Source of the DNA: Solirubrobacteraceae bacterium
GTDB taxonomy: Bacteria > Actinomycetota > Thermoleophilia > Solirubrobacterales > Solirubrobacteraceae
Reading direction: 5' to 3'
Length of the DNA stretch: 64,000 nt
NCBI GenBank assembly: GCA_035484215.1
Contig: DATHPE010000008.1
Span: 27,326-91,325 of the forward strand
How positions within the stretch are numbered: the first letter of the stretch is position 1; the number at the start of each line of letters is the position of its first letter. The notes beneath the pieces were generated by a model. It did not search any database and was not told where the DNA came from. It saw only the letters and a program-made list of their open reading frames with translations. The position numbers and the translations under genes were made by a program. Below are positions 3-44,167 of this stretch, piece after piece.

Positions 3-1265
3 ACGCCGGCCAGCCGCTCCAACGCGCTGCTGGAGCTCGCCGAGCTGCTCGACGAGCACGCCGAGGAGCTCGCGCTGCTGGAGTCGCGCAACACCGGCAA
101 GCCCGCCACCCTGACCGGCGAAGAACTGCCCCTGTGCGTGGACAGCCTGCGCTTCTTCGCCGGCGCCGCGCGCTGCCTCGACGGGCTGCCGGCGGGCGAG
201 TACCTCAGCGGCTACACCTCGATGGTGCGCCGCGAGGCGCTCGGCGTGGTCGGGCAGATCACGCCGTGGAACTACCCGCTGATGATGGCCGTGTGGAAGA
301 TCGGCCCGGCTCTGGCGACGGGCAACACGATCGTGCTGAAGCCCTCCGAGCTGACGCCGCTGAGCACGCTGCGCCTGGCCGAGCTGGCAGGGGAGGTGCT
401 GCCGGCGGGCGTCCTGAACGTCGTCTGCGGAGACGGCGCGGCCGGGGCGGCCATGGTCGAGCATCCCGATATCCGCATGGTCTCGCTGACCGGCAGCGTC
501 GAGACGGGCAGGCGCGTGGCGGCGGCGGCCGCGCGCACGCTCAAGCGCGTGCACCTGGAGCTCGGCGGCAAGGCGCCGATGATCGTCTTCGCCGACGCCG
601 ATCTGGAGGCGGTGGCCGCGGGCGCGCGCGCGGGAGCGTTCACGAACTCCGGGCAGGACTGCACGGCGGCCACGCGCGTGCTGGTGGCCGAGGAGATCTA
701 CGACAGCGCGCTCGAGCAGATCGTCGCGGCGGCCGGCTCGCTGGTGGTGGGCGACCCGGCCGACGGCGAGAGCGTCGAGATGGGCCCCGTGATCTCCGAG
801 CGCCAGCGCGAGCGCGTGCTCGGCTTCGTCGATCGCGCGAGCGCCGACGGGCGCGTGCTGTGCGGCGGCTCGGCCCCGCGGCGCGCGGGCTTCTTCGTCG
901 AGCCGACCGTCGTGGCTGACGTGCGCCAGGACTCGGAGCTCGTCCAGGAGGAGGTCTTCGGCCCGGTGCTGAGCGTGCAGCGCTTCGCCGACGAGGACGA
1001 GGCGATCGCGCTCGCCAACGACGTCCGCTACGGCCTTTCGGCATCGGTGTGGACCCAGAGCCTCGACCGCGCGATGCGCGCGACGCGCGAGCTCGAGTTC
1101 GGCGCGGTGTGGGTCAACGACCACCTGCCGTTCCTGTCGGAGATGCCCCACGGCGGCTTCAAGGAATCGGGCTACGGCAAGGACCTTTCCATTTACGCGG
1201 TGCAGGAGTACACCGAGATCAAGCATGTGATGGTCAGGCACGACCAGAGAGGGGAGAAGCTGTGA
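3..1265 (+). CDS. Aldehyde dehydrogenase, aminobutyraldehyde dehydrogenase-like; 5' end lies outside the window
   Basis: Open frame from nt 3 (TPASRSNALLELAELL..ESRNTGKP); motifs PWNYP, LELGGK, NSGQDC (catalytic Cys), EEVFGP, GGFKESGYG. Confidence 0.93.
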   Translation, partial: TPASRSNALLELAELLDEHAEELALLESRNTGKPATLTGEELPLCVDSLRFFAGAARCLDGLPAGEYLSGYTSMVRREALGVVGQITPWNYPLMMAVWKIGPALATGNTIVLKPSELTPLSTLRLAELAGEVLPAGVLNVVCGDGAAGAAMVEHPDIRMVSLTGSVETGRRVAAAAARTLKRVHLELGGKAPMIVFADADLEAVAAGARAGAFTNSGQDCTAATRVLVAEEIYDSALEQIVAAAGSLVVGDPADGESVEMGPVISERQRERVLGFVDRASADGRVLCGGSAPRRAGFFVEPTVVADVRQDSELVQEEVFGPVLSVQRFADEDEAIALANDVRYGLSASVWTQSLDRAMRATRELEFGAVWVNDHLPFLSEMPHGGFKESGYGKDLSIYAVQEYTEIKHVMVRHDQRGEKL

Positions 1266-5029: not shown

Positions 5030-5611
5030 ATGCCGAAGGTGACCTTCTACTTCGACCTGGGTTCGCCGTACGCGTACCTGGCCGCCGAGCGGCTGGACAC
5101 GCTGCTGCCCGAGCCGGTCGAGTGGCAGCCGATCCTGCTGGGCGGCCTGTTCAAGGCGACGGGGCGCAGCTCGTGGTCGCTGGGCGACGAGGGGCGCAGG
5201 CGGGCGGGCATGGCCGAGATCGAGCGCCGTGCCCGCGCGTACGGGCTGCCGCCGGTGCGCTGGCCGGAGCCGTGGCCGACGAACTACCTGACAGCGATGC
5301 TGGCTACGACGTTCGCGTTCAGGGCCGGGCGCGGGCGGGAGTTTGCGCTGCGGGCCTTTCGCAACGCTTTTCAGGAGGGGTCGGATCTGAGTGTGCCGGA
5401 GCGCGTGTTCGAGGTCGGCGGGCAGGTCGGGCTCGATCGGGATCGGCTGGAGGCGGCGACGCAGGATGCGGAGGTCAAACGGGCGCTGCGTGCGGCCACC
5501 GATGCGGCGTACGAGCTCGGCGTGATCGGTGTTCCGACGATCGCGATCGACGATGAGCTGTTCTGGGGCGACGATCGGCTCGAGGACGCCGCCGCGCATC
5601 TCAAGGCGTGA
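5030..5611 (+). CDS. DsbA-like thioredoxin-fold protein (2-hydroxychromene-2-carboxylate isomerase / GST-kappa family)
   Basis: FYFDLGSPYAYL N-terminus, WQPILLGG, GVIGVPT..IDDELFWGDDRL C-terminus. Confidence 0.88.
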   Translation: MPKVTFYFDLGSPYAYLAAERLDTLLPEPVEWQPILLGGLFKATGRSSWSLGDEGRRRAGMAEIERRARAYGLPPVRWPEPWPTNYLTAMLATTFAFRAGRGREFALRAFRNAFQEGSDLSVPERVFEVGGQVGLDRDRLEAATQDAEVKRALRAATDAAYELGVIGVPTIAIDDELFWGDDRLEDAAAHLKA

Positions 5612-6035: not shown

Positions 6036-7412
6036 TTGACTAAGCATCGCAAGACGGCCAGGGTGATACCGGGCGCGCGACGGCTGATCATCTCAATGCG
6101 CGACCTCGGCTACGGCCCCACAGAGGCCATCGCGGATCTGGTCGACAATAGCGTCGCCGCGGGCGCTCATAGCGTGGAGATAACTCTCCACTTCGATGGT
6201 GGTGACTCCTGGATCCGGATCGCCGATGACGGTCGAGGGATGGACGCTGAGATGATCACGGAGGCGATGCGATACGGCGCGGCGCGCGATTACGGGGCCG
6301 ATGATCTCGGCAAGTTCGGGCTAGGCCTCAAGACGGCATCGATGTCCCAATGCCGTTGCCTCACTGTCGCGAGCCGAACCTCGAAGTCCGTGGCACGCGT
6401 GGAGGCGCGCCAACTCGACCTCGATTACATCGAGGACCACGATGCCTGGGACATCCTGATTGTCGGTGCTGCCGAACGCTCGGAGTCGCTCATCGGTCCC
6501 CTCAAGGAGCACCGCGGAACAGTTGTCCTCTGGGAGGACCTCGATCGGATCCTGACCTACCAGGACCCTGGCGGCGGTTGGGCGCGTCGTCACATGATCA
6601 AGCTCGCCGAGCGCCTTGACGCGCATCTAGGAATGGTGTTCCACAGATTTCTTGCTGGGGAGGTGCCGCGCAAGAAGCTCAAGATCACGATCAACGATGT
6701 GATGGTCGATCCGTGGGATCCGTTCGCACGCGACGAGCCGCAGACGGAGGCCGGCAGATCCGAGGATGTCGAGCTCAACACCGCCGCCGGTTCGGGGATC
6801 GTGCACTTCGCCCCGTACACCCTTCCCCCGAAGGCGAGCTTCAGCAGCGATCCGGCATGGCGGCGGATGTCAGGCCCAAATTCCTGGAATCGCCAGCAAG
6901 GATTTTACATCTACCGAGCCAGCCGCTTGATCCAAAGCGGTGGCTGGTCGAACATGCGCACCGCTGATGAGCACACCAAGCTCGCCCGGATTGCGCTCCT
7001 CTTCTCCCCCGAGCTCGATGCGGCCTTCGGGATCAACGTTGCGAAGATGCGAGTAACGCTTCCCCCCGAGCTGAGCGATCGAATCGAGGCACCGGTGAAT
7101 AGGGCGGTCAAGCGTGCCCGCACCGTTTACGACGCCAAGCCCGACCAAGCAAGGCCCCAGAGGCCTTCCGGGAAAGCGACGGACGCCGCGGCGGCGCGCG
7201 GGCCTGGCTCGCACGGGAACGGTCATGTGGGTGAAAGCATCGTGAGCGGCGACGAACACCGTGCGGTCGCGGCCACCATTACGGTCGCTCAGATGCGTCG
7301 AGAGGCTCTGGAGAGCGCCGCAGGCGCTGCAGGGGAGCAGGCCGCGCTCAGGAGGATCATCAACGCACTCTCCAAAGAGGCACCAGAGGTAGCGAGAGAC
7401 CTTGGCTTCTGA
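6036..7412 (+). CDS. MORC/MutL-like GHKL ATPase (HATPase_c_3 type, MzaA-like), copy A
   Basis: ADLVDNS (N box), DDGRGM (G1), LGKFGLGLKTAS (G2), GTVVLW, QGFYIYR..RLIQ.GGW. Confidence 0.9.
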   Translation: MTKHRKTARVIPGARRLIISMRDLGYGPTEAIADLVDNSVAAGAHSVEITLHFDGGDSWIRIADDGRGMDAEMITEAMRYGAARDYGADDLGKFGLGLKTASMSQCRCLTVASRTSKSVARVEARQLDLDYIEDHDAWDILIVGAAERSESLIGPLKEHRGTVVLWEDLDRILTYQDPGGGWARRHMIKLAERLDAHLGMVFHRFLAGEVPRKKLKITINDVMVDPWDPFARDEPQTEAGRSEDVELNTAAGSGIVHFAPYTLPPKASFSSDPAWRRMSGPNSWNRQQGFYIYRASRLIQSGGWSNMRTADEHTKLARIALLFSPELDAAFGINVAKMRVTLPPELSDRIEAPVNRAVKRARTVYDAKPDQARPQRPSGKATDAAAARGPGSHGNGHVGESIVSGDEHRAVAATITVAQMRREALESAAGAAGEQAALRRIINALSKEAPEVARDLGF

Positions 7413-10113
7413 ACCTGGCGCCGACGCCTACCTACGCGTCGTGAACACCGCACTGGACTCGGGTGTTCACCCATCCTTCGAGGACGCGCTGACCGCGATC
7501 GTGCCCGCGGCGATGCGAAGCACGGTCCGTGAGCTTCACGAACAGCAAACGACACAGCAGATCAAGCGAGTGCGCGGGGTGGCGGTGGATGGCGGTCCCA
7601 AGGCCTGGTTCGCCGGTTGGGATCCAGCCGAAAGATATTACTGGCCCCGTCAGCGACGGTATCTGCTCGACCAGATTGGCAGAAGCCCCGAGGCTGTCGA
7701 GGCAACAGATGACGACAGTGACCGCGTCCTGTCCTATCTCGAGGATCCACGCGACAGTGGTCCCGATACCTTCAATACACGTGGGCTCGTGATCGGCCAC
7801 GTACAGAGCGGCAAGACCGAGAACTTCAGCGCCCTCATCGCGAAGGCGGCGGATGTCGGTTATCAGGTCATCATCGTCCTCGCAGGGGTCCACAACGGGC
7901 TGCGCCAGCAGACGCAGCGCCGACTTGAGCGAGAGCTCGGGCTCGAGAACGTGACCCCCGGCGTCGGTCTTCCTGAGCCCGGTCTTCGCTGGAATAACCC
8001 GACTACTGCCGACCTGCACGGCGACTTCGTTCCGGGTACCAGCGACCCGAGCATCCTCCAGGGTAACGAGAAGGTCATCTTCATCGTCAAGAAGTGGCAC
8101 ACCGTACTCGAGAGGCTGATCCGGTTCATAAGAGATGCGGAGGCACCGTCAAACCTGCCGGTGTTGGTGATCGACGACGAGGCCGACCAAGCCTCTGTCA
8201 ACACAGGCGGCAACAGGCAGCCGCTCAGTGACCTGATCGATGCCGACGACCCGCCCGTGGACTTGGAGGACGAGACCGATCCGTCGACTACCAACCGCCT
8301 CATCCGTGACCTGCTGACCCTCTTTCCCCGCGTCGCCTACGTGGCCTACACCGCGACGCCCTTCGCGAACGTGCTCATCGACCACCGTGCGGAGGATCGC
8401 GAGGTCTACGAAGACCTATATCCCCGTGACTTCCTGCTCACGCTGTTCCCCCGCCCAGGATATGTCGGAGCTTCCCGCCTGTTCGGCCACGACAGCCTGG
8501 ACGGCACGCCCGAGGGCACGGCCGAGGGCCTCGATGTCATTCGATTCATCCCCGAAGTCGACCTGCCGATCGTGACTCCCCAGGGTGTGAAGCTTGTCGA
8601 CTTCGTACCCGGGATGCCGCCGTCACTCGACGAAGCGATCGTGGACTGGCTGCTGGCTACCGGTGGACTGCTGGCACGCGCGGGCCGTGACCACCCCTCC
8701 TCCATGCTGATCCACATCCACCAGCGTACCGACGTTCAGAACGCACTGGCGCCACAGGTCGCGGATGCGGTGCGCGCTCTGCGCAACGAGTGGCGTTACG
8801 ACAGAGACGGACCCCTGCGCGAGCAGATGCGGGCCCGGTGGGACGATGACTTCCGGACAGTCACCCGCCGGATAGACGCTGACCGCGACATGCAGTTCGA
8901 CGACATCGAGGAGCACATCGACAAACTGCTCAAGGATGGGGTGTCGGTGCTCGCGCTGAACTCGCGGTCGACAGACGTGCTCGATTACGAGCAGGACCCC
9001 AATATAAAGGCCGTGCTCATCGGTGGAAACCGCCTCTCACGAGGCATGACGCTCGAAGGCCTCACCGTCTCCTATTACGTACGCGAAACCCCCTACATGG
9101 ACACGCTGCTGCAGATGGGCCGCTGGTTCGGCTACCGTGAGTGGTATGTCGACCTGACACGTCTGTGGACAACGCCAACGCTCGCGAGCTGGTTCCGCGA
9201 CATATCCCTCCGCGAGGATGAGCTTCGCGAGCAGATCATGCAGGCTGAGCTCGAGCACCTCTCCCCGCTGCAGGTCGGCTACCGCATCCGGTCACATCCC
9301 GCGATGATGGTCACTGCCCAGAACAAGATCGGTGCGGGACGCCAAGAGCGGCTGTCTTACGCCGGTCGCATGATCCAGACGACACGTTTCCGACTCCACG
9401 AGCGAGAGTGGCTCGAGGAAAACTTCGCGGCCGCTCGCGAACTCTTGGGCGGACTCGGCGAGCCCGGGAGAGATCCAAGCGGGGTGCCGCTCTGGAATAA
9501 CGTCCCATGGGAGTCCGTTCACAGATTTCTGAGTCGCTACCGTACCGTGCAGGATCGGACCTCGTTCGATGCGGAGGCGGCAGCCAGCTACCTTGAGGCA
9601 CAGGTACGCCACCACGAGCTTGTGCGCTGGAGTGTCGCCATCGCGGAGCAGACGCGGCCCGTCGAGCGGCTCGGCTCTGTCGATTTCGAAATCGACGACG
9701 TCGAGCCTGTGAACGCAATCTCACGCACCCGCCTGAAGAGTGACATTAACTCGATTGGTGTCCTGACCAATCCGGCGCAAAGCGGCGGGGCGACGCGGCG
9801 AGGAGACGAGGAGATCGGACTCACCGACGAGGACATTCTGCGCGCACGGCAGGAATTCGGTGACGAGAAGTACGAGCGCATACGCGACGCGCTCCTCGCA
9901 CAGCGCACCTCAGAGGAAGGACTGCTGGTTCTCTACCCCATCAGCCGCTACTCGCTGCCTCGCCCGGCGAGCAGCACACGCCTCGCGCTGTTCGACGACC
10001 CCCACCAAGGGGGTGAGACCGTGATCGGAGTCGCGCTCGGCTTTCCGCCATCTGCCAGCGAGGCCACGATCGAATATGTCGCCGGTTCGGTTGCACAGGA
10101 GAAAGACGAGTGA
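7402..10113 (+). CDS. Z1-domain protein with SF2 helicase-like N-terminus (MzaB-like)
   Basis: GHVQSGKT, LVIDDEADQAS, YTATP, IGGNRLSRGMTLEGL, DTLLQMGRWFGYR; TTG start overlapping the MORC end. Confidence 0.9.
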   Translation: MASEPGADAYLRVVNTALDSGVHPSFEDALTAIVPAAMRSTVRELHEQQTTQQIKRVRGVAVDGGPKAWFAGWDPAERYYWPRQRRYLLDQIGRSPEAVEATDDDSDRVLSYLEDPRDSGPDTFNTRGLVIGHVQSGKTENFSALIAKAADVGYQVIIVLAGVHNGLRQQTQRRLERELGLENVTPGVGLPEPGLRWNNPTTADLHGDFVPGTSDPSILQGNEKVIFIVKKWHTVLERLIRFIRDAEAPSNLPVLVIDDEADQASVNTGGNRQPLSDLIDADDPPVDLEDETDPSTTNRLIRDLLTLFPRVAYVAYTATPFANVLIDHRAEDREVYEDLYPRDFLLTLFPRPGYVGASRLFGHDSLDGTPEGTAEGLDVIRFIPEVDLPIVTPQGVKLVDFVPGMPPSLDEAIVDWLLATGGLLARAGRDHPSSMLIHIHQRTDVQNALAPQVADAVRALRNEWRYDRDGPLREQMRARWDDDFRTVTRRIDADRDMQFDDIEEHIDKLLKDGVSVLALNSRSTDVLDYEQDPNIKAVLIGGNRLSRGMTLEGLTVSYYVRETPYMDTLLQMGRWFGYREWYVDLTRLWTTPTLASWFRDISLREDELREQIMQAELEHLSPLQVGYRIRSHPAMMVTAQNKIGAGRQERLSYAGRMIQTTRFRLHEREWLEENFAAARELLGGLGEPGRDPSGVPLWNNVPWESVHRFLSRYRTVQDRTSFDAEAAASYLEAQVRHHELVRWSVAIAEQTRPVERLGSVDFEIDDVEPVNAISRTRLKSDINSIGVLTNPAQSGGATRRGDEEIGLTDEDILRARQEFGDEKYERIRDALLAQRTSEEGLLVLYPISRYSLPRPASSTRLALFDDPHQGGETVIGVALGFPPSASEATIEYVAGSVAQEKDE

Positions 10114-11132
10114 ATACGGCCGACCTAGACGCAGCTTGGCGAGCCGTCGATACGCCGGCCGTGGCTGGTGGCCTAGCGGGCAAGCCCGCGCCCGGCCTCG
10201 ACCCAGAGCTCGGTGTACTACTGGCGCTCGACTCAAGGCAGCTCCGCCACATCCTCATCCCGGTCGATGAGGCGGCTGAGCCGCCGGCGACAGTCGCGAC
10301 CAAGGGCTTGGAGGTCACCGTTGATGATCTACAGGCTGATGACAGGCCTCCCAGACGCTACCTCGACATCGCGTGCCGCGATACCACGATGCACGCGAAC
10401 TTCACCGTGGTCGCCGCCGAGATCGTTGAGGAGCTGGGAGCCGAGGCAGGCAACAGCCGGAAGATACTTGAGCGTATCCTCGCCCGTTGGCGCTGGTTCT
10501 GGGACACGCCGCCGGAGGGGCTCACGGACGCGGAGGCCGTCGGCCTGTTCGGTGAGTTGTGGTTCTTGGAGTACTGGCTTGACCCGATCGACGATGCGGT
10601 GCTACAAGCGTGGACGGGTCCGAACCGCGACCGCCACGATTTCAAGTGGCCCGCCGCCTCAGTGGAGGTGAAGGCGACGCGAGCCCGAAGCGACGGGTCC
10701 GCGAGTCACCGTATTTCAGCACTCGAGCAGCTGGAAGATCCAGAGCGGGGTCAGCTGTATCTATTTAGCCTCCGCGTTAGGCCCGACCCGATTGCGGCGC
10801 ACAGTCTCAATGCGAGCGTCGAGCGGATCAGGCGAACGCTCTCCGATCGTGCCGAGCTATTGCATGCATTCGACGAACGGCTCGCTCTGCTGGGCTACGG
10901 CCCCGTGCACCGAGATCGATACGACGCGCCGATTAGAGTCGTCGCAGAGGAGCTATTCCGAGTTGATGGGCAATTTCCTCGTCTCACGAGGAGCTCTTTC
11001 GTCGAGGGTGAGGTGCCCAGCGGGGTGGACCGCATCGGATACGATCTGGAGCTCGTCGCGTGCGTGCGTTGGCGTATCGCCACCGCCCCGGGTTCCCAGG
11101 CGCGGCAGCTGCGCGAGAGCTTGCACTCATGA
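10110..11132 (+). CDS. PD-(D/E)XK nuclease-like protein (DUF4420 type, MzaC-like)
   Basis: GLFGELWFL, WTGP..DRHDF, SVEVKAT, HRISALEQL; GTGA overlap with Z1. Confidence 0.85.
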   Translation: MNTADLDAAWRAVDTPAVAGGLAGKPAPGLDPELGVLLALDSRQLRHILIPVDEAAEPPATVATKGLEVTVDDLQADDRPPRRYLDIACRDTTMHANFTVVAAEIVEELGAEAGNSRKILERILARWRWFWDTPPEGLTDAEAVGLFGELWFLEYWLDPIDDAVLQAWTGPNRDRHDFKWPAASVEVKATRARSDGSASHRISALEQLEDPERGQLYLFSLRVRPDPIAAHSLNASVERIRRTLSDRAELLHAFDERLALLGYGPVHRDRYDAPIRVVAEELFRVDGQFPRLTRSSFVEGEVPSGVDRIGYDLELVACVRWRIATAPGSQARQLRESLHS

Positions 11133-11163: not shown

Positions 11164-11655
11164 CTATTGCGCCGAGCGCTGGTGGTCGACCTTCGCTGTT
11201 GCAGCCAGCGTGGGCTGTGCCACGAAGTTCCTGACCACCTGAGCAATGCGTGCTGCGGCATCCTCGGGTGGCTCATGCTCCCACACGCGGATTACGTGCC
11301 ATCCACGGGCACGCAGCGCCGCATCAGCCCGACGGTCGCGCTCCACGTTGGCTTCCAGCTTCTCCTTCCACCATCGGCCGTTGCTCTTAGGGATGGTTCC
11401 GTGCGACGGGCAGCTGTGCCAGAAGCATCCGTCCACGAAGACCGCGGTCTTTGTGGGTCCGAAGACGACGTCTGGTGTAGTGCGTAGGTCGGGCTCTGCG
11501 CGGCGATGGATTCTGAATCGTAGGCCACGCCGGTGAAGTGCGGAGCGCAGGAGTATCTCAGGTGAGGTGTTCCGCGACCGGTTGGCCTTCATGGTTGCTG
11601 CTGCCGCCGGTGATGACGCCGGAGGCGTGCCTTGCTTGGCGCTTCGTCCTAGCAT
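11164..11655 (-). CDS. vsr: Very short patch repair endonuclease
   Basis: MKANRSRNTSPE, LHRRGLRFR, PDVVF, VFVDGCFWHSCP, WKEKLEANVERD, VWEHE. Confidence 0.93.
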   Translation of the reverse strand: MLGRSAKQGTPPASSPAAAATMKANRSRNTSPEILLRSALHRRGLRFRIHRRAEPDLRTTPDVVFGPTKTAVFVDGCFWHSCPSHGTIPKSNGRWWKEKLEANVERDRRADAALRARGWHVIRVWEHEPPEDAAARIAQVVRNFVAQPTLAATAKVDHQRSAQ

Positions 11656-12952
11656 CGTTCACGTGCGCCGAATCGTCGGGATCCGCGTTGGCGAGACGAA
11701 GCAGCACGGTATCGCGCAGGTATGGATCATGTCCGAGGACATCGTCGAGCGCTGCGATTATGGCAGGCCAGTCGCGACTGATGCTTATCGCCTCTGGGGC
11801 CGCGCGGAACGGTTGCTCTTTGAGTCCCGGATCGATCGCGTCGAGGTGATCCCTGTAGCGCTCCTGAGCGACCGCTACTACTCCTGAGGCGACGGTCCGA
11901 AGCGCAGGTCTGAGCTCGTCGGGGATCGATACGCGCATCTTCGCGACATCCACCCCGAACCCCTGCTCCTCGCCGAGGGGCAGGTCAACGGCGATGCGGG
12001 CCAGCTTCGCGTGCTCGTCGAGTGTCCGAAGACGATTCCAGCCACCTGGCTGGATGAGCCGGTCGCGACGGTAGATATAGAAGCCTTGGTGTCGGTTCCA
12101 GCGACGAGGTCCGGCAGCGGCCTGATGTGCCTCGGGCGATGAGAACAACTGCTGACTGGGGAGCACATACGGTTGCACATCCACGGCGACGGTTCGCCCT
12201 TCCGAGTCTTGGTACTCGAGCACCTGCCGCGGCAGCGTCCGCGTGTGCTGCTCATGCCTCGCAAATGGATCCCAGGCCTCTATACGGTCGCCATTGAGTG
12301 TCAGGACCAGCCGACCACGGCCGTCGTACGCCGTTTCGTCGAGGAAGCGGTGGAAGACCATGGCGAGGTGGTCGCGTATCTCGTCCACAGCCGTCCGCAG
12401 CACACGTGCTGTCATACCCTCGGTGGGCCTGCGCGGAAGCACGCGGTCCAGGTGCTCCCAGAGAACTACCGTTCCGTGGCCGGTCTCCGCGATCGGGCCT
12501 GTGAGACGCTCGGACGCGGCGCGGTGTGATAGGCGTTCAAGTTCCCAGGTGTCGCGTCTCAGGACTTCGTCGAGGTCCCAGCGGCGGATCGCCCTCTTGG
12601 ATGCTCCGCGTTCTCGCGACGCGATCGTGAGGCGTCGACACTGCGACAGCGAGGCCGTCTTGAGGCCGAGGCCGTAACGCCCCAGTGCTTCAGGTGAGTA
12701 GTCCACGCGCGTTCCGTAGCGCATGGCCTCATCGAGCCTGGCTGCCGACATGCCGATGCCATCATCGCTTACACGGATCCATGACTCTGAGCCATCTGCC
12801 ACGACATCCACGTTGACCGTGCTGGAGCTGGCATCGATGGCGTTGTCAACAAGATCTGCGACCGCGCTCGGCAGGTCATAGCCGATGTCACGAAGGGAAG
12901 ACATGAGACGACCTGCCGACGGCACGATCGCAATGCGGGATTCACGGCTCAT
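11558..12952 (-). CDS. MORC/MutL-like GHKL ATPase, copy B
   Basis: SLRDIGY, ADLVDNA, DDGIGM, LGRYGLGLKTASLSQC, QGFYIYRRDRLIQPGGW; ATGA overlap with the MTase stop. Confidence 0.9.
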   Translation of the reverse strand: MSRESRIAIVPSAGRLMSSLRDIGYDLPSAVADLVDNAIDASSSTVNVDVVADGSESWIRVSDDGIGMSAARLDEAMRYGTRVDYSPEALGRYGLGLKTASLSQCRRLTIASRERGASKRAIRRWDLDEVLRRDTWELERLSHRAASERLTGPIAETGHGTVVLWEHLDRVLPRRPTEGMTARVLRTAVDEIRDHLAMVFHRFLDETAYDGRGRLVLTLNGDRIEAWDPFARHEQHTRTLPRQVLEYQDSEGRTVAVDVQPYVLPSQQLFSSPEAHQAAAGPRRWNRHQGFYIYRRDRLIQPGGWNRLRTLDEHAKLARIAVDLPLGEEQGFGVDVAKMRVSIPDELRPALRTVASGVVAVAQERYRDHLDAIDPGLKEQPFRAAPEAISISRDWPAIIAALDDVLGHDPYLRDTVLLRLANADPDDSAHVNDARTKRQARHASGVITGGSSNHEGQPVAEHLT

Positions 12953-14922
12953 GCGGCCACGAGCCCTTCATGTTTGGCCCGTGGGGAGGCCAAACTGCGG
13001 TCGGCCTGAGCGGCTCTCGTTCGGCCCGTCGCACACCCGACGTGCAGTGGGCACATTTCGCAGCGAGGTTTTGCCGGGCGGCACAGCTCGCGCCCGAGGT
13101 CGAGCAACGCCCGATTGAATTCGGCGTCAGGACCTGCCGATCCGGCGAGACGGTGCAGATCTAGCCTGACCTGGAACCGTCGGGTATCTCCGTGTCGGGC
13201 CAGTCTCCCAGCGACACGCGCGGTCGTCTGATCGAGCAGCACCTGTCGGCGGCCGAATGCGAAGGTCAGGGCTGCTCCCCCTGTGTACTCGCCAACACCC
13301 GGGAGCAGCGGCAGCAAGGTCTCGTCGTTGGGGACAGCCCCGTCAAAGTAGGTCACGAGATCCTCCGCAAGCGCGAGAAGCGCGACGGCGCGCTCCTGCG
13401 TCAATCCGATCTCGGCCAAGAGGCGCTTCGGGTCGTCGTGAGCCAGCAGTGCAGTGGGACGTGGGGCGATCTCGGATAGCCTCTCGAACGTCCCCTCGGC
13501 ATCGCTCGGGCGCATCCGTGCCAGCACCAGCTCCGCTGCAAGCACCAGCCAGGGATCGCTACCATCCCTTCTCCATGGCGGCGACCACGTGTCTGACGCT
13601 CGGCGCCATCCGACTAGGAGCTCCCGGAAGCGCTCGCGCTCCGGCGACCGAAGCCGGCGGGACTGTTCGAGTGTCGTCTTCACGGACCGGCCTATGGCCT
13701 CACCGAGAAGCACCGGCACCGCATTTCCAACCTGGCGATACCTGTGTGACTGTGTGCCGGCGAAGCGGAAGTTGTCCGGGAAGCTCTGCACCCTTGCAGC
13801 CTCGCGAAGCGAGAGAGTCCGGTGCTGGTCAGGGTGTATGTACCAGTAGCCGTCCTTCGCGATGTGAGCGGTGATCGTACGACACAGCTCGGACCAGGAC
13901 AGACGCTTGTACTTGTCTGTGAAGACGTCTGAGCGATAACGACGTAGACGGTCCGGCAGATCAATATAGGTCTGCCCCTCGCCCAGCAGCCTGAAGGCCT
14001 CCATATCGTCTGGCCGCACGTCGCGGCATATATGTTCGAGCACGACATCGTGGTCCTCGGTCGGGAGATCCTGTCTCATGAGCCGCTGGTAGTCGGAAGT
14101 CTGGCGCCTGACGTCGTAGGGGAGGCGCTCGCAGCGTTGTGCCCTGGGAATTGGCGGTAGGTCGCCGATCGCGTCGCGGAGGGTCGTATATTGATCCGTG
14201 GGCTCGGGCCAGCGAGGGCGTCGGTTTCCGTCGATCCCTATGAGAATGAGCCGTTGGCGATGCTGGGGAATCCCGTACCGGAAGCCGTCGAGGACACGTG
14301 CCTCGACTTGGTAGCCGAGGGCGTCCAGCGAGTCATGAAGGCCCATCAGAACGGCGCCGTCGTTCCAGCGCACGAGGTCGGGCACGTTCTCTACGAGTAC
14401 CGCTGCTGGCCGGAGCGCCTCGACGACCTTTACGAACGATGACCACAGGTCGGCCCTGTGGTCGTGGGCGGCACGCTCGCCCGTGTCGACCAAGTCTCGG
14501 ATCCGCGAGCTGCCGGCGCGGCTGAACGGTTGGCAAGGCACGCCGCCTGCCAAGAGGTCGATCTGGCCGACCCCCCATACATTTAGTGTCGTGAGGAACT
14601 CTGTCGGGTCTGACAGGTCGCCGCACCAGCTGAGCCCGGGGAGGTTGGCATCGTGTGTGCGCACGGCCCACTGGTCTGAGTCTGCTCCGGCGAGTACGTC
14701 GAAGCCGGCGCGCTCGAGGCCGAGCGAGAGACCGCCGGCGCCGCAGAAGAGCTCGATCGCCGTTGGGCGTCCCGACGAGCGCGAGACGAAGGAACGAATG
14801 GCCTGCAGATCGGAGCCGTCGGGTGTCTGCGGGTGCTTCGCTGGCCGCTTGGGTGCACCCCGATGGTGCGCGACCATAGGTCGCGCACCTGTGCCACGTG
14901 CATTTTGTGTCGAATCGCCCAC
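12949..14922 (-). CDS. dcm: DNA (cytosine-5)-methyltransferase fused to a C-terminal HhH-GPD (MutY/MIG-like) domain; start codon uncertain
   Basis: Motifs I (ELFCGAGG), IV (GVPCQPFS), VI (ENV), VIII (PQHRQR), IX/X (REAARVQSFP, QVGNAVP); then PWLVLAAELVLAR, LPGVGEYT and CX6CX2CX5C. Confidence 0.9.
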   Translation of the reverse strand: MGDSTQNARGTGARPMVAHHRGAPKRPAKHPQTPDGSDLQAIRSFVSRSSGRPTAIELFCGAGGLSLGLERAGFDVLAGADSDQWAVRTHDANLPGLSWCGDLSDPTEFLTTLNVWGVGQIDLLAGGVPCQPFSRAGSSRIRDLVDTGERAAHDHRADLWSSFVKVVEALRPAAVLVENVPDLVRWNDGAVLMGLHDSLDALGYQVEARVLDGFRYGIPQHRQRLILIGIDGNRRPRWPEPTDQYTTLRDAIGDLPPIPRAQRCERLPYDVRRQTSDYQRLMRQDLPTEDHDVVLEHICRDVRPDDMEAFRLLGEGQTYIDLPDRLRRYRSDVFTDKYKRLSWSELCRTITAHIAKDGYWYIHPDQHRTLSLREAARVQSFPDNFRFAGTQSHRYRQVGNAVPVLLGEAIGRSVKTTLEQSRRLRSPERERFRELLVGWRRASDTWSPPWRRDGSDPWLVLAAELVLARMRPSDAEGTFERLSEIAPRPTALLAHDDPKRLLAEIGLTQERAVALLALAEDLVTYFDGAVPNDETLLPLLPGVGEYTGGAALTFAFGRRQVLLDQTTARVAGRLARHGDTRRFQVRLDLHRLAGSAGPDAEFNRALLDLGRELCRPAKPRCEMCPLHVGCATGRTRAAQADRSLASPRAKHEGLVAA

Positions 14923-15166: not shown

Positions 15167-15718
15167 ATGCCGAACGCAAGACCCGCGACCTATCCGATGT
15201 GGAAGTTCTACCCATCTCGCATGGCTGCCCCCGAGTGGGTCCCGCGGGTGATAGCCGTGTTCGCACATGCAGCGAGCAAGATCGACTCCAAGTCCAATCA
15301 CGGCGTTAGCAGCGATGCGGTACTCGCTGCACTCCGTCCCGCGCTCGTCGAGCTCGGCTTTGCGATTGAGTCCAGCAAGAAGAAGGCGGACAAGATCTGG
15401 CGCCCAGTGCTTTTTGGCGAGGCCGGCGAATCAGTGGTCGCCTACGAGGTGGACGGCTTCCACCAAGAGCTCGGCATCATCCTCGAGATCGAGGCTGGTC
15501 GCGGCGCGATGAACAATGCCGACTATCGCGATCTCGTGAGAAGTAGCCTGATCGTCGACGCCGAGTTCCTGATACTCGGCCAGATGCTCGAATACAGAGC
15601 TGGCAAGAAAGACGCGGTCACCCCGAGCTACAAGCGGACACGCGACCAGCTTGACGCGATCTACGCAAGCGAGCGTCTCAAGCTACCTTTCAAGGGCGTC
15701 TTGCTCGTCGGCTATTGA
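15167..15718 (+). CDS. Putative type II restriction endonuclease (BglII/BstYI/BamHI-like PD-(D/E)xE fold)
   Basis: 183 aa; YEVDGF..GIILEIEAG..YRDL..SY..LPFKGVLLVGY pattern; divergent from the C5-MTase. Confidence 0.55.
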   Translation: MPNARPATYPMWKFYPSRMAAPEWVPRVIAVFAHAASKIDSKSNHGVSSDAVLAALRPALVELGFAIESSKKKADKIWRPVLFGEAGESVVAYEVDGFHQELGIILEIEAGRGAMNNADYRDLVRSSLIVDAEFLILGQMLEYRAGKKDAVTPSYKRTRDQLDAIYASERLKLPFKGVLLVGY

Positions 15719-15991: not shown

Positions 15992-16327
15992 TCAGCCATG
16001 GCATTCGACGGCCACCTCGAGCGCCGCGCACACCTCCCGCATGCGGTCATCGCTCAGTCGTCCGAGGCGCTCCACGAGGACCGCGACCGACACGCTCTCC
16101 ACAGAGTCGAGGTTGATCGAGGATCGGCGGGGGACTGGATCGTCGTCGGGCTCTAGAACGACCTCGCTGGCCAGGCTGCGAATGGTGGTCGTGCATGGCG
16201 CGACAAGCGCTCGTCGCAAGCGAGGGATAGCCGCGTCGCGTGAGAGCACCACGACAGGCCGCCGGCCGATCTCCGGCAACTCACACCACCACATCTCTCC
16301 CCTCGCGGGAAGCGGGCCGCCGCTCAC
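15992..16327 (-). CDS. mazF: MazF/PemK endoribonuclease toxin
   Basis: [41 protein letters not shown]; GTGA overlap with the antitoxin. Confidence 0.9.
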
Positions 16328-16560
16328 GATGCCGCGGCCGCCTCTCGGAACGACGCCAGATCGCCCCACGCATCGGGCTCCTCGAGAGGGTGCTTGTCGT
16401 AGGCCGCGTATGCAGCATCGATCTCGGCCGCACGATGGCGGTCCAAGAGCGCCGCGAGCGCTTGGTCGAGGACGGCGGCATCCGTCAGCGGCGCGAGTGC
16501 CTGACGGGCCCTCTCCAAGAGCTGCTCGTCAACGGTAGTGCTCACCCTCGTCCTTGCCAT
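16324..16560 (-). CDS. mazE: Ribbon-helix-helix antitoxin (MazE5-like)
   Basis: [46 protein letters not shown]; directly upstream of mazF. Confidence 0.85.
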
Positions 16561-16590
16561 GCCACTATTATGCCACGTCTGTGCCATACT
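16555..16590 (-). promoter_or_regulatory. Leaderless mazEF promoter with TGCCAY repeats (probable antitoxin operator)
   Basis: Minus strand TGG-CATAAT-agtggc-ATG; four TGCCAY copies at 16555, 16560, 16571 and 16582. Confidence 0.5.
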
Positions 16591-16647
16591 TTGTCTGCCT
16601 TCGCAAACAAAGCCCGACACAGCCCGGCTGCCGTCGGCGCGCGCGCC

Positions 16648-41947: not shown

Positions 41948-42756
41948 CCACGCACGCTGAAAAGGCCACTCGCTTCCTCGAGCTCCACCGTCAGGAGCGT
42001 CCGCTGCTGCTGGCCAACGCCTGGGACGTCGGCTCGGCCAGGCTGCTGGCTTCAGTCGGCTATCAGGCTCTAGCGACCACCAGCAGCGGCTACGCCGCGA
42101 GCCTCGGCCGGCTCGACTACGGGGTCACCCGCGATGAGGCGCTCGCACATGCCGCCGCGCTCGTCGCCGCGACCGACGTGCCCGTCTCGGCGGACCTCGA
42201 GGAGTGCTTCGCCGTGGACTCCGCTGGCGTCGCCGAGACCGTGCGTCTTGCGCTTGACGTCGGCCTCGCCGGCTGCTCGGTCGAGGACTGGAACCCGCGC
42301 GGGCAACGCCTGTACGACATCGATGAGGCCGCCGAGCGCGTCGCGGCGGCAGCCGAGGCCGCGCACGCCGGTCCCGTGCACCTCGTGCTCACCGCGCGCG
42401 CCGAGAACCACCTGCGTGGGAACCCCGACGTGCAGGACACGATCTCGCGCCTGCTCGCCTATCAGCAGGCCGGCGCTGACGTGCTGTACGCCCCCGCGCT
42501 CGATCGACCCGAGGACCTGCGCGAGCTGCTCGCCGCGGTCGAGTTGCCGGTCAACGTACTCGCGCGCGCCGCCACGCCGCCGGTGGCGGAGCTCGCGGCG
42601 TTGGGGGTCAAGCGCATCTCCGTCGGCGGTGGGTTCGCGTTCGCGGCTTACGGGGCAGCGGTCAAGGTCGCGAGCGAGCTGCTCGGCCAGGGGACCTACG
42701 GCTTCACGGAGCTGTCGGCTGCAGGTGCGAAGGCTGTGCGCGCGGCGTTCGACTGA
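41944..42756 (+). CDS. Isocitrate lyase / PEP mutase family protein
   Basis: NAWDVGSA, LATTSSG, CSVED, LTARAE, AGADVLY. Confidence 0.88.
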   Translation: MTTHAEKATRFLELHRQERPLLLANAWDVGSARLLASVGYQALATTSSGYAASLGRLDYGVTRDEALAHAAALVAATDVPVSADLEECFAVDSAGVAETVRLALDVGLAGCSVEDWNPRGQRLYDIDEAAERVAAAAEAAHAGPVHLVLTARAENHLRGNPDVQDTISRLLAYQQAGADVLYAPALDRPEDLRELLAAVELPVNVLARAATPPVAELAALGVKRISVGGGFAFAAYGAAVKVASELLGQGTYGFTELSAAGAKAVRAAFD

Positions 42757-43050
42757 GCTAGTGAGTTCGAGCCACCGGGCGTTGAACGGCGTCGACCGGA
42801 TCAGGCTGCTGTCAGACGCTCGCAGGCGCACCAGACGTCGCTCGTTCGGGCGGAGTTGGCAAAGACGCCGGCAGGGCATTTCATCGGGGTTAGACGTAGG
42901 TACCTATACCCGAGCGACGGTACCGGCCGCGTTGACGGCTAACGTTTCTCGATGCTGCGATCTGCCATCAGCCGAAAAGGCTCGGTTTTTGCGTGTATGG
43001 GCACCCCGCTTGCTCCCAACAACCGCGAAGATGCATAGGAAGGCACGGCC

Positions 43051-44151: not shown

Positions 44152-44167
44152 CCATAGCGACTATTCC

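Follow-up and report, generated by a model that had tools for sequence, protein, structure and literature searches.

A C5-cytosine methyltransferase fused to a Mig/MutY-like DNA glycosylase domain in an MZA-like defence island of Solirubrobacterales

Introduction

Why should a cytosine methyltransferase carry a DNA glycosylase at its C terminus? Through cytosine methylation, a genome is shielded from the restriction-type defences that it encodes, at the price of more C-to-T mutation, which weighs on an organism with 71% G+C. Two answers to this cost are known: the methylase may be accompanied by a Vsr nuclease as a protein of its own, or have the gene of a stand-alone Mig glycosylase beside its own gene. 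In the second case, exemplified by Mig.MthI, a T:G/U:G mismatch glycosylase, the gene neighbours that of M.MthTI, a C5-methyltransferase, on a plasmid of Methanothermobacter. In the 64,000-nucleotide stretch of Solirubrobacteraceae DNA analysed here (the window), the repair enzyme appears to be welded onto the methylase itself. An initial annotation of the window had proposed a "writer-repair" function for this protein, and here we ask whether the fusion is real, what its second domain is, and in which setting the gene resides.

Results

The fusion is a genuine and conserved protein

The initial annotation had described a C5-methyltransferase joined to a MIG/MutY-like glycosylase, and the open reading frame and the matches to PF00145, TIGR01084, and PDB structures all agreed with this description (Table 1). 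Translated from its GTG codon, the protein has 657 amino acids (aa); the database gene call (P0029) begins at Met16, with an ATG at 14877, and comprises 642 aa. In an alignment of homologues, the mean column conservation was 0.82 for the methyltransferase domain, 0.64 for the glycosylase domain, and 0.44 for the linker of about 20 aa.

Table 1. Features of the fusion gene and of the surrounding island (positions in the window)
Feature	Position	Strand	Basis or remark
GHKL/HATPase_c_3 ATPase 2, first gene of the convergent operon	6036..7412	(+)	paralogue of ATPase 1, 45% identity
Z1-domain (SFII helicase-like) protein, MzaC-like	7402..10113	(+)	PF10593, E 9e-63
DUF4420 PD-(D/E)XK motif protein, MzaD-like, putative nuclease effector	10110..11132	(+)	PF14390, E 2e-52
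Vsr very-short-patch repair endonuclease, last gene of its operon	11164..11655	(-)	TIGR00632, Pfam Vsr
GHKL/HATPase_c_3 ATPase 1 (paraMORC/MzaB-like), directly downstream of the fusion	11558..12952	(-)	PF13589, E 1e-28
Whole fusion ORF	12949..14922	(-)	C5-methyltransferase, linker, and Mig/MutY-like glycosylase
Variable C-terminal tail, conserved VAA at its end	12949..13026	(-)	homologue alignment
HhH-GPD/[4Fe-4S]-type DNA glycosylase domain, aa ~438-632	13027..13611	(-)	profile, PDB, and model matches
Predicted iron-sulfur loop, Cys614-x6-Cys621-x2-Cys624-x5-Cys630	13033..13083	(-)	in register with the MutY and Mig cluster cysteines
Thr566	13225..13227	(-)	within LLDQTT
Catalytic Asp564	13231..13233	(-)	within LLDQTT
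HhH LPGVGEY, aa 540-546	13285..13305	(-)	
Arg469 (Glu+5)	13516..13518	(-)	within AAELVLARMRP
Catalytic Glu464	13531..13533	(-)	within AAELVLARMRP
Linker, poorly conserved, aa 416-437	13612..13677	(-)	column conservation
C5-cytosine methyltransferase domain, aa 55-415	13678..14760	(-)	Pfam PF00145, TIGR00675, motifs
Catalytic Cys130	14533..14535	(-)	within PCQ

A frameshift had been named from the outset as a possible source of the fusion, and a misassembly joining two separate genes could have the same effect. The two domains do lie in different frames at three of the 17 genome loci (L002, L013, and L017), and the gene copy is partial or degenerate at two more (L015 and L016), while at L014 the break falls within the methylase domain and leaves motif X and the glycosylase in one frame. 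The frame-broken loci, however, all come from "MFD" metagenome-assembled genomes (MAGs) that contain other internal frame breaks. The same fusion was found in all of the best 120 database clusters (56 to 77% identity, query coverage 81 to 100%) and as a single open frame at 12 of the 17 loci, mostly in Solirubrobacterales MAGs; a protein identical to it is present on three independently assembled contigs. These observations refute the artefact, whose probability we take to be negligible, and the fusion is genuine and conserved. The family numbers at least 120 clusters at 90% identity, drawn from JGI, ENA, NCBI, and Logan, and nearly all of them come from uncultured soil lineages.

The N-terminal domain is a C5-cytosine methyltransferase

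PF00145 (DNA_methylase) matched with 207.6 bits against a cutoff of 22 (E 4e-61), and TIGR00675 (dcm) passed with 175 bits against 100.65. The methyltransferase motifs were all present (motif I FCGAGG, the PCQ motif, ENV, and motif X GNAVP) and turned out to be invariant across 64 homologues; Foldseek matched the domain to DNMT1, MET1, and M.HaeIII. As far as sequence and fold can tell, this is a complete enzyme of the Dcm superfamily.

By family profile, the C-terminal domain matches Mig better than MutY or endonuclease III

We then carried out the profile and structure searches that had been suggested for the C-terminal domain. The best NCBIfam name was mutY (TIGR01084), matching aa 432-635 with model positions 2-211 of 277 (E 4e-25) and a score of 88.8 bits, far under the cutoff of 286.5, while the Nth model TIGR01083 failed with 55.8 bits against 211.7. 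The Pfam HhH-GPD model (PF00730) gave no match at E<0.01 on the fusion protein, which explains why the database clusters of its homologues are annotated solely as cytosine methyltransferase; with every member so named, the fusion is invisible to annotation. In a single-sequence search of the PDB, MutY came first (E 5e-21) and Mig.MthI (1kea) gave E 2e-19, and the search with the family profile was headed by 1kea, which scored 112 bits (E 2e-31), with MutY reaching 99 bits and endonuclease III (EndoIII) 78 bits. The AlphaFold model of the domain (pLDDT 92) superimposed on 1kea with a TM score of 0.82 and an rmsd of 2.8 Å; Foldseek TM scores against known catalytic cores, those of MutY included, ranged between 0.77 and 0.82.

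Every motif quoted in the initial annotation (ELVLAR, LPGVGEYT, LDQT, and CX6CX2CX5C) was present in the translation, and Glu464, Arg469, Asp564, and all four cluster cysteines were invariant in 64 homologues down to 56% identity. With a dN/dS of 0.15 to 0.3, the domain evolves under purifying selection. The alignments confirmed the difference at Glu+5 stated in the initial annotation, Arg in Mig (EILLRRT) against Gln in MutY (EVMLQQT), and Arg or Lys occupies this position in 94 of 106 short stand-alone relatives. Tyr546 lies at the position of the EndoIII lyase Lys, like Tyr126 of Mig, and is Tyr in 43 of the 64 homologues; the glycosylase should thus be monofunctional. The C-terminal domain of MutY and its GLGYY wedge were absent, as judged from profile and alignment.

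By its fold, its hairpin and Asp, and its Cys motif, the domain is assigned to the HhH-GPD/Fe-S superfamily (Nth/MutY/Mig), and within it the predicted architecture is that of Mig: a short protein without the MutY C-terminal domain, with Glu and Asp, a basic residue at Glu+5, Tyr, and a C5-methylase partner. We infer that the domain would bind a [4Fe-4S] cluster and act catalytically with T:G/U:G specificity, to the benefit of its carrier. An identity as endonuclease III was rejected because TIGR01083 stays below its cutoff and Tyr546 replaces the lyase Lys, and membership of the MutY equivalog because of the low TIGR01084 score, the Arg plug, the missing wedge, and Arg604 at the adenine-contact position. 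A chance fusion of the methylase with an adenine glycosylase of the MutY type, directed at A:8-oxoG or A:G, could account for the mutY name and for MutY heading the single-sequence matches, but such a glycosylase would have lost its C-terminal 8-oxoG-recognition domain, its Tyr wedge, and its Gln plug, and would have Arg in place of the adenine-contacting Gln/Glu; we regard this explanation as highly improbable.

The base pocket is diverged

In the fused clade, four positions in the pocket or next to the catalytic residues depart from what Mig-like and MutY proteins both conserve: Thr at Glu+6 to Ala, Ala50 of Mig (Glu+8) to Pro, Asn at Asp+2 mostly to Thr, and Leu187 of Mig to Arg. The stand-alone relatives have Thr (104/106), Ala (79/106), Asn (84/106), and Tyr, Leu, Trp, or Phe (92/106) at these positions, and the Mig set of pocket residues (Thr, Ala, Asn, and a hydrophobic or aromatic residue at Leu187) was not found in the fused clade. 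Arg604 stands where Mig-like proteins have a hydrophobic Leu, Tyr, or Trp and MutY has Gln or Glu. Pairwise distances put the fused clade at 1.79 from Mig and at 1.72 from MutY, roughly the same. A family-specific motif, RRFQLRLDLHRLAG (R582, Q584, D588), is invariant and absent from Mig and MutY. Because of the four diverged positions, T:G specificity is a matter of inference, the substrate is uncertain, and specificity or rate may differ from those of Mig. The initial annotation had held that the Asn-to-Thr change might alter or abolish catalysis; this argument proved weak, since the position is variable (T36 N12 A7 V4 S3 G2 among the 64 homologues) and Thr there is not a fixed trait of the family.

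The fusion gene belongs to an MZA-like island

Judged by the proteins encoded around it, the fusion is the methylase of a six-gene MZA-like or paraMORC-Z1-DUF4420 phage-defence island (Table 1). The TGA stop codon of the fusion overlaps the ATG of ATPase 1 (GCATGA), which implies translational coupling, and the order of fusion and ATPase 1 is kept in every related locus (L001-L017 and L020-L027). The Vsr gene, which had been reported as lying next to the fusion, is in the same operon but separated from it by the ATPase 1 gene, whose 3' end it overlaps; TIGR00632 passed on it with 132.5 bits (cutoff 97.85), and the database call has 142 aa. The NCBIfam models MzaB (NF041932; E 3e-77, 260 against a cutoff of 850), MzaC (E 2e-130, 436 against 1500), and MzaD (E 4e-33, 115 against 420) matched ATPase 1, the Z1 protein, and the DUF4420 protein, respectively. 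With all three scores far below the equivalog cutoffs and neither a sigma-like (MzaA) nor an AIPR (MzaE) gene in the island, a true MzaABCDE system was rejected; the related locus L026 has both of these genes. The island is best called MZA-like, or a "type I" Z1-DUF4420-Dcm system.

Vsr was missing nearby in 6 of the 17 related loci with enough flanking sequence, although the fusion was present there, so the two parallel T:G repair routes that had been proposed are not general. Where Vsr is found, as in most loci, a second T:G enzyme looks redundant. Unfused relatives of the glycosylase on archaeal and Thermus plasmids lay within two genes of a dcm in all five cases inspected. On a Thermus plasmid, the dcm precedes the glycosylase gene and their ends overlap, plausibly a state preceding fusion, and the 19-kb Thermus plasmids that bear a dcm and an unfused relative have no annotated Z1 or DUF4420 genes. 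From haloarchaeal plasmids to Solirubrobacterales, a Mig-like glycosylase recurs in a trio with Dcm and a GHKL ATPase.

Discussion

The fusion is a variant of the known pairing of a methylase with T:G repair, and its glycosylase most likely, to judge from its residues and relatives, removes T:G mismatches caused by its own methylation. That one polypeptide combines two working DNA enzymes, a self-marking C5-methyltransferase and a Mig-type monofunctional glycosylase for T:G/U:G repair, is a proposition to which we give an even chance; it is the best available reading, since the catalytic residues are kept, the domain is under purifying selection, Mig.MthI is the top profile match, and dcm genes are the neighbours of unfused relatives. 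Deamination would turn the 5-methylcytosine made by the methylase domain into thymine, and could turn a cytosine bound in the methylase active site into uracil, leaving T:G or U:G mispairs at the recognition sites. The glycosylase, tethered by the flexible linker, would flip the mispaired pyrimidine out, with Arg469 filling the gap opposite the orphan guanine. This residue occupies the "plug" position, which is likewise Arg in Mig and in MutY serves to read the orphan base. Asp564 and Glu464 would cleave the glycosidic bond, and base-excision repair of the host would turn the abasic site back into C:G. For a genome with 71% G+C, the burden of C-to-T mutation that comes with the system would thereby be limited, with Vsr, where present, providing a second, nick-directed route. 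The initial proposal of writer-repair thus holds as regards the conserved fusion, the catalytic residues, the Mig match, and the dcm neighbours, but was incomplete, the defence-island context having been missed.

It is this context that opens a defence-side role. The glycosylase might be directed at invading rather than host DNA, with the target-recognition domain of the methylase finding sites that lack methylation or are hypermodified. A base excised or sensed there would give abasic sites or a signal to be passed to the GHKL ATPase, the Z1 protein, and the PD-(D/E)XK nuclease. The gene does lie within an MZA-like island and is coupled to a GHKL ATPase at every locus, the pocket has diverged from those of repair enzymes at four positions, and there are precedents in the HhH/EndoIII-derived sensors of END nucleases and in glycosylases acting as antiviral effectors (PMC12191111). 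Yet the nearest relatives are Mig-type repair enzymes, the unfused ones accompany dcm on small plasmids such as those of Thermus, dedicated nucleases are already part of the systems, the END sensor domains have lost the catalytic residues that are kept here, and an Arg plug suits a mispair opposite G; we consider this role unlikely. Less probable still is the sharper form in which the glycosylase is an arm of the defence, an HhH "restriction glycosylase" or modified-base sensor steered to invading DNA by the methylase, whose abasic sites or binding signal would be turned into lethal breaks through the coupled GHKL ATPase, Z1 protein, and nuclease. A repair glycosylase for a lesion other than T in T:G, such as uracil only, 5-hydroxymethyluracil, 3-methylcytosine, or an oxidised pyrimidine, ranks between these two in our estimate: Arg604 sits at a base-contacting position, Thr at Glu+6 and Asn at Asp+2 are lost as well, and Vsr already covers T:G at most loci, but nothing positive favours any particular lesion, and a mispair with G agrees best with the association with dcm and with an Arg plug that never varies.

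The domain could also be a non-catalytic module that binds DNA, a mismatch, or a flipped base and helps the methylase to scan or dock, or recruits the GHKL ATPase. The variable small residues beside the catalytic Asp would fit such a role (structural work on MutY, in PDB 8dvp and related entries, covers N146S, which has Ser in place of this Asn), as would the use of inactivated HhH domains as sensors elsewhere, and RRFQLRLDLHRLAG could be an interaction surface. Pure binding, however, would not need Glu464 and Asp564, which are invariant in 64 of 64 homologues. Moreover, enzymes of the EndoIII family, with their VDTH motif, are functional without Asn at Asp+2. We place this explanation marginally below the restriction glycosylase.

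In paraMORC/Z1/DUF6339 defence islands, a Mig-like glycosylase seems to recur as a component that has been overlooked. Should the restriction glycosylase be real, the glycosylase-Dcm-GHKL trio would constitute an unrecognised immunity module based on base excision, and the family becomes considerably more interesting if the diverged pocket reflects a new substrate or a defence role. It is a small, naturally occurring system in which to ask whether site-directed repair results when a mismatch glycosylase is tethered to a sequence-specific methylase.

Comparison with known systems

Canonical systems composed of Z1, DUF4420, GHKL ATPase, Dcm, and Vsr are known as the paraMORC restriction-modification systems of Iyer et al. 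2008 (PMC2292703) and as the putative "type I" Z1-DUF4420-Dcm system of Miller et al. 2022 (PMC9523054), and are relatives of the validated mzaABCDE; the searched portions of the two texts make no mention of a glycosylase in these systems. The canonical version on an Agrobacterium plasmid has the same gene set as the window (Vsr, Dcm, ATPase, Z1, and PD-(D/E)XK), but its Dcm is unfused; the window also differs by its pair of ATPase paralogues and by the absence of an AIPR gene. Since canonical systems carry an unfused Dcm together with Vsr, a T:G repair function is routinely brought along, and the Dcm-Vsr pairing and the fusion are alike in that a C5-methylase travels with such a dedicated function. 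END nucleases, in which an inactivated EndoIII domain senses hypermodified phage DNA (PMC12191111, which with its reference 60 also covers DNA glycosylases as antiviral effectors), share with the fusion the recruitment of an HhH glycosylase-superfamily domain to a phage-defence protein. They have lost the catalytic residues and are fused to a nuclease, whereas here these residues are kept and the partner is a methylase.

Mig.MthI, the best match by profile and by TM score and rmsd, has in common with the fusion domain the HhH-GPD fold, the [4Fe-4S] Cys motif, a length of about 200 aa without the MutY C-terminal domain, both catalytic residues (Glu and Asp), the Arg at Glu+5, a Tyr where lyases have Lys, and a C5-methyltransferase partner. 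In contrast to Mig.MthI, the glycosylase here is covalently attached to the methylase C terminus. Identity is only about 25 to 28%, and four residues of Mig are exchanged: Thr48 for Ala, Ala50 for Pro, Asn146 for Thr, and Leu187 for Arg. The fusion comes from a soil lineage of Actinomycetota with high G+C (Solirubrobacterales), not from a thermophilic archaeon, and it lies in a defence island of several genes, Vsr among them. MutY and MUTYH share the catalytic-domain fold, the Fe-S motif, and the Glu and Asp, but the fusion is without the NUDIX-like 8-oxoG domain and the Tyr wedge and has Arg both for the Gln plug and for the adenine-reading Gln/Glu.

The eukaryotic MBD4 (MED1) joins a methyl-CpG-binding domain to an HhH-GPD T:G/U:G glycosylase, is not known to have an Fe-S cluster, and interacts with the MutL homologue MLH1. 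In both proteins, a module recognising methylation sites is covalently tied to an HhH-GPD mismatch glycosylase, and each has a GHKL ATPase as partner, which in the present family is the product of the following, translationally coupled gene. They are probably independent inventions: MBD4 unites a reader with repair, the present family a writer with repair. The family would be a bacterial "writer-repair" counterpart to the eukaryotic "reader-repair" MBD4, with a MutL-like ATPase as its gene neighbour.

A cytosine methyltransferase fused to a Mig/MutY-type glycosylase

The fusion open reading frame (ORF) starts at a GTG, from which residues are numbered here; in the public gene call of the identical protein (P0029), translation begins at Met16 (ATG at 14877), for a length of 642 aa. 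In the methylase domain, FCGAGG, PCQ (Cys130), ENV, and GNAVP were all found and are invariant among homologues. A Pfam scan of the protein gave no HhH-GPD match at E<0.01, and the C-terminal domain was identified by NCBIfam, PDB sequence, and structure searches, Pfam not being sufficient. The NCBIfam mutY model matched the fusion with an E value of 4e-25 and 88.8 bits (cutoff, 286.5) over model positions 2 to 211 of 277 only, and the PDB sequence search returned MutY (E 5e-21) and Mig.MthI (1kea; E 2e-19). Since Foldseek with the full-length model (pLDDT 82.8, pTM 0.83) returned methylases only (DNMT1, MET1, and M.HaeIII), the glycosylase domain was modeled separately. This AlphaFold model, built on 25 homologues, had a pLDDT of 92 and superposed on Mig.MthI with a TM score of 0.82 and an rmsd of 2.8 Å; MutY catalytic cores superposed as well, with endonuclease III slightly behind both. 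The initial annotation had proposed a MIG/MutY-like C-terminal domain on the strength of its motifs, and ELVLAR (Glu464, Arg469), LPGVGEY, LLDQTT (Asp564, Thr566), and the putative iron-sulfur cluster motif C614-x6-C-x2-C-x5-C630 were indeed where it had placed them. The profile, PDB, motif, and model matches therefore confirm the methylase-glycosylase fusion far beyond chance.

Features of the fusion gene, its surroundings, and related loci (window positions, fusion residues, or positions in the named locus)
Feature	Position	Strand	Remarks
DSBA-like gene	5030-5611
Paralogous ATPase	6036-7412	+
Z1-domain protein	7402-10113	+
DUF4420 PD-(D/E)XK protein	10110-11132	+
Vsr	11164-11655	-	above TIGR00632 cutoff
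GHKL/HATPase_c_3 ATPase	11558-12952	-	downstream of fusion; ATG overlaps fusion stop
Fusion ORF	12949-14922	-	657 aa from GTG
C5-cytosine methyltransferase, complete	aa 55-415	-	Pfam PF00145, E 4e-61; TIGR00675 above cutoff
Linker between fusion domains			~20 aa, poorly conserved
Glycosylase domain	aa ~438-632	-	matches catalytic domain of MutY-type glycosylases
183-aa ORF	15167-15718	+	divergent from fusion gene
PemK/MazF-like toxin and antitoxin-like ORFs	15992-16620	-
Second low-G+C island	42134-47896		63-66% G+C
Conserved trio, L025	17364-20922
Conserved trio, L027	17319-21702

The fusion is conserved

A whole-protein search found at least 120 clusters with 56 to 77% identity and 81 to 100% query coverage, mostly of 600 to 700 aa. 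The 120 clusters listed came from JGI, ENA, NCBI, and Logan assemblies, and all were named 'DNA (cytosine-5)-methyltransferase 1' or had no name. A search of one genome per species gave 17 loci, nearly all from Solirubrobacterales/Thermoleophilia MAGs, the exceptions being single bins of Chloroflexota, Trueperaceae, and a 'Burkholderia'-labelled one. Twelve of the 17 have methylase and glycosylase in one open frame. L014 is a 13th locus in which motif X of the methylase and the glycosylase still share a frame, its break lying inside the methylase domain. The two domains are in different frames in L002, L013, and L017, and in L015 and L016 the gene is partial or degenerate. All these broken loci (L002 and L013 to L017) are 'MFD' MAGs with other internal frame breaks, and an identical copy of the window protein is present on three independently assembled contigs. 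The initial annotation had allowed for a frameshift artefact absent from homologues; with the fusion intact in those 12 loci and in the 120 or more clusters, the probability of an assembly or frameshift artefact is negligible. The frameshifts in several 'MFD' MAGs may be explained by sequencing error or true decay. In L016, the partial glycosylase domain adjoins another methylase, with an identity of just 38%.

In 64 full-length homologues, Glu464, Arg469, Asp564, Arg569, Arg573, the four Cys, and a family-specific motif, RRFQLRLDLHRLAG (R582, Q584, D588), are invariant. The dN/dS ratio (Nei-Gojobori) was 0.15 to 0.3 for the glycosylase domain in the least saturated pairs and 0.05 to 0.2 for the methylase domain. 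These invariant residues and the ratio for the glycosylase show that selection maintains this domain and that its predicted catalytic residues are intact.

The fusion gene lies in a defence island

The initial annotation had not noticed that the fusion gene stands in a defence island. The island spans ~10 kb with 63 to 64% G+C (background, ~71%) and consists of two convergent operons, the minus-strand one containing the fusion gene. MzaB-, MzaC-, and MzaD-like assignments of the ATPase, Z1, and DUF4420 proteins were made by PADLOC and NCBIfam, all with scores far below the equivalog cutoffs. The two ATPases (paraMORC, MzaB-like), one per operon, are paralogues 45% identical over 350 aa, and their opposite strands account for the long inverted matches in the repeat search. 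Related loci carry one or two such ATPases, the copy downstream of the fusion being the constant one. Fusion homologues end in a conserved V-A-A, and because the fusion stop overlaps the ATPase start (GCATGA, 12949-12952), this tail may be a translational-coupling signal rather than serve protein function. Counted from its first ATG, the Vsr ORF shares 98 nt (11558-11655) with the 3' end of the ATPase gene, and the public call (142 aa) shares 35 nt; L021, another assembly of this locus, has a 426-bp gap at the Vsr position without a called Vsr gene.

The island borders were searched for a tRNA, an integrase, and flanking direct repeats, and none was found, the tRNA search covering the whole window. 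At one edge, where G+C rises back to ~72%, a PemK/MazF-like toxin ORF is overlapped by an antitoxin-like ORF upstream of it; the other side abuts the DSBA-like gene. The 183-aa ORF, which the other assemblies of the locus also contain, had no Pfam, NCBIfam, or PADLOC match, and none of the 17 related genome loci has a homologue. One homologue (P0053) is 1032 aa long and carries phage-integrase domains (PF22022, PF00589) after the fusion; it may result from an ORF calling error or point to mobility of the island. In the second low-G+C island of the window, three ORFs follow one another on the plus strand (306, 366, and 752 aa), none of them matching Pfam or PADLOC models. A convergent 531-aa ORF there, about twice the usual ThyX length, matches ThyX (PF02511) in its C-terminal half only.

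The order fusion then ATPase was found in every related locus, and some also carry the second ATPase, Z1, and DUF4420, as in the window. A complete sigma-like/ATPase/Z1/DUF4420/AIPR set without Vsr is present in L026. Eleven loci have Vsr near the fusion, and 6 have none within 10 kb. In eight loci (L025, L027, L001, L003, L009, L010, L014, and L016), Z1-DUF4420 is followed by a conserved trio, of which the first two members are proteins of ~630 and ~300 aa and the third is DUF6339; an HNH_2 protein is frequently close by. The first two trio proteins had no Pfam match, scanned or on record, in L005, L035, L025, and L027, and 'DUF6339' was not found in the literature searched. Divergent trio copies occur in L005 and on the Halobaculum plasmid NZ_CP081960.1 (L035); the trio is absent from the window.

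Glycosylase type and base pocket

Against the PDB, the family profile scored highest with Mig.MthI (112 bits, E 2e-31), then with MutY (99 bits) and endonuclease III (78 bits). Among 1.84 billion representatives searched, the fused family itself stood at >170 bits, followed at 125 to 155 bits by a continuum of stand-alone proteins of 210 to 250 aa, a Mig-like length, without the MutY C-terminal domain.

Diagnostic positions of the glycosylase domain
Position	Fused clade	Stand-alone relatives	Mig.MthI	MutY
Glu+5	Arg 22/22	Arg 68, Lys 26 of 106	Arg	Gln
EndoIII lyase Lys	Tyr		Tyr	not Lys (Tyr in G. stearothermophilus MutY)
GLGYY wedge	absent	absent	absent	present
Glu+6	mostly Ala	Thr 104/106	Thr	Thr
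Mig Ala50	mostly Pro	Ala 79/106	Ala	Val
Asp+2	T36 N12 A7 V4 S3 G2 of 64	Asn 84/106	Asn	Asn
Mig Leu187	Arg 48/64	Tyr/Leu/Trp/Phe 92/106	Leu	Gln/Glu

Glu+5 (the 'plug' position, inserted into the helix in MutY), the lyase position, and the absent wedge point to an enzyme that would be monofunctional and excise a base standing opposite G. At Glu+6, Asp+2, and the Ala50 and Leu187 positions, the fused clade has, as judged from its residues, departed from both Mig and the stand-alone relatives; changed together with Ala50, Leu187 presumably switches Mig towards A/G. The initial annotation had suspected the Asn-to-Thr change at Asp+2 of altering or abolishing catalysis; this position is relaxed, and the change is not a fixed inactivating one.

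Neighbour-joining distances put the stand-alone group nearest to the fused clade (1.53); Mig (1.79) and MutY (1.72) are at nearly the same distance, and a placement closer to Mig than to MutY was not obtained. In the reference tree, the fused sequences formed their own clade with the fragment P0178 inside it and P0160 as sister with P0178, without other intruders; only 15 of 30 bootstraps gave the fused sequences alone as monophyletic. Our reading is that the domain, judged by its architecture, its plug residue, and its partnership, is probably a Mig-type enzyme whose base pocket has been remodelled.

Unfused relatives stand beside dcm

The best plasmid matches to the glycosylase domain (30 to 35% identity) include 'hypothetical proteins' of 214 to 257 aa, and a DNA cytosine methyltransferase lay at most two genes away in all five inspected. 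The Natronobeatus gene is divergent from dcm, on Thermus thermophilus 19-kb plasmids dcm is immediately upstream with overlapping ends, and the Haloplanus, Halorubrum, and Halobaculum genes are within two genes of dcm. On the Halobaculum plasmid, the glycosylase is followed by Dcm with an overlapping 677-aa HATPase_c_3 protein and then the DUF6339 trio; the modules are those of the Solirubrobacterales loci, with the glycosylase unfused. The inspected stand-alone plasmid proteins retain the Mig-like Asn and Leu/Trp. The recurrent partnership with dcm speaks for a glycosylase in the service of the methylase or of its system, and for an origin of the fusion from a dcm-then-glycosylase gene pair.

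The four nearest stand-alone representatives (P0158, P0166, P0169, and P0173) are on contigs of 0.9 to 2.2 kb, and their context was uninformative. Apparent stand-alone members of the family itself turned out to be contig-end fragments, such as P0150, which begins with the first base of its 3-kb contig and has the ATPase gene next to it downstream. Seeming glycosylase-HATPase fusions (P0019, P0020, and P0176) were rejected because of their Arg/Pro/Ser-rich out-of-frame stretches: these ORF calls are frame-shifted and extend from the fusion gene's end into the gene that follows.

Proposed function and relation to known systems

Pairing of a C5-methylase with a Mig glycosylase or Vsr is established biology, and so the fusion is not a new kind of system. 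A limited literature search found no described methylase-glycosylase fusion, an earlier description being possible, and relative to it four features appear new: the covalent fusion; the size and lineage restriction of the family, at least 120 clusters at 90% identity, mostly from uncultured soil Thermoleophilia, behind a 'Dcm' annotation; the diverged base pocket of the fused clade; and the recurrence of the glycosylase in paraMORC/Z1/DUF6339 defence islands across Bacteria and Archaea.

The best-supported reading, to which we give about an even chance, is that the fusion is a writer-repair enzyme. The methylase domain would mark self DNA for the defence system, and deamination at its own sites would produce T:G and U:G mispairs, from which the tethered Mig-type glycosylase would take out the T or U. 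Base-excision repair of the host would finish the restoration, presumably to the host's benefit, with Vsr, where present, as a second route.

A role on the defence side, as a restriction glycosylase or modified-base sensor, has precedents in the END nucleases and antiviral glycosylases (PMC12191111) and seems unlikely to us. Repair of a different lesion, which the remodelled pocket suggests, is slightly less probable still, and a non-catalytic reader or recruitment module, to be set beside the invariant catalytic residues, is a little more doubtful again. Very improbable is a MutY-like adenine glycosylase, the clade carrying Arg and not Gln as its plug residue and having no GLGYY wedge.

The island is of the kind represented by the paraMORC restriction-modification systems of Iyer et al. 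2008 (PMC2292703), in which an SFII helicase is accompanied by Dcm and Vsr. A further apparent match is the six-gene putative 'type I' defence system of Miller et al. 2022 (PMC9523054), which includes Z1, a PD-(D/E)XK protein, and a cytosine methyltransferase and is related to the validated mzaABCDE; MzaA was rejected as the MZA methylase, being described there as sigma-factor-like. A glycosylase is not mentioned in the searched text of either paper, nor MZA in Payne et al. 2021. The canonical Agrobacterium plasmid system comprises Vsr, an unfused Dcm, ATPase, Z1, PD-(D/E)XK, and AIPR, whereas in the window Dcm is fused.
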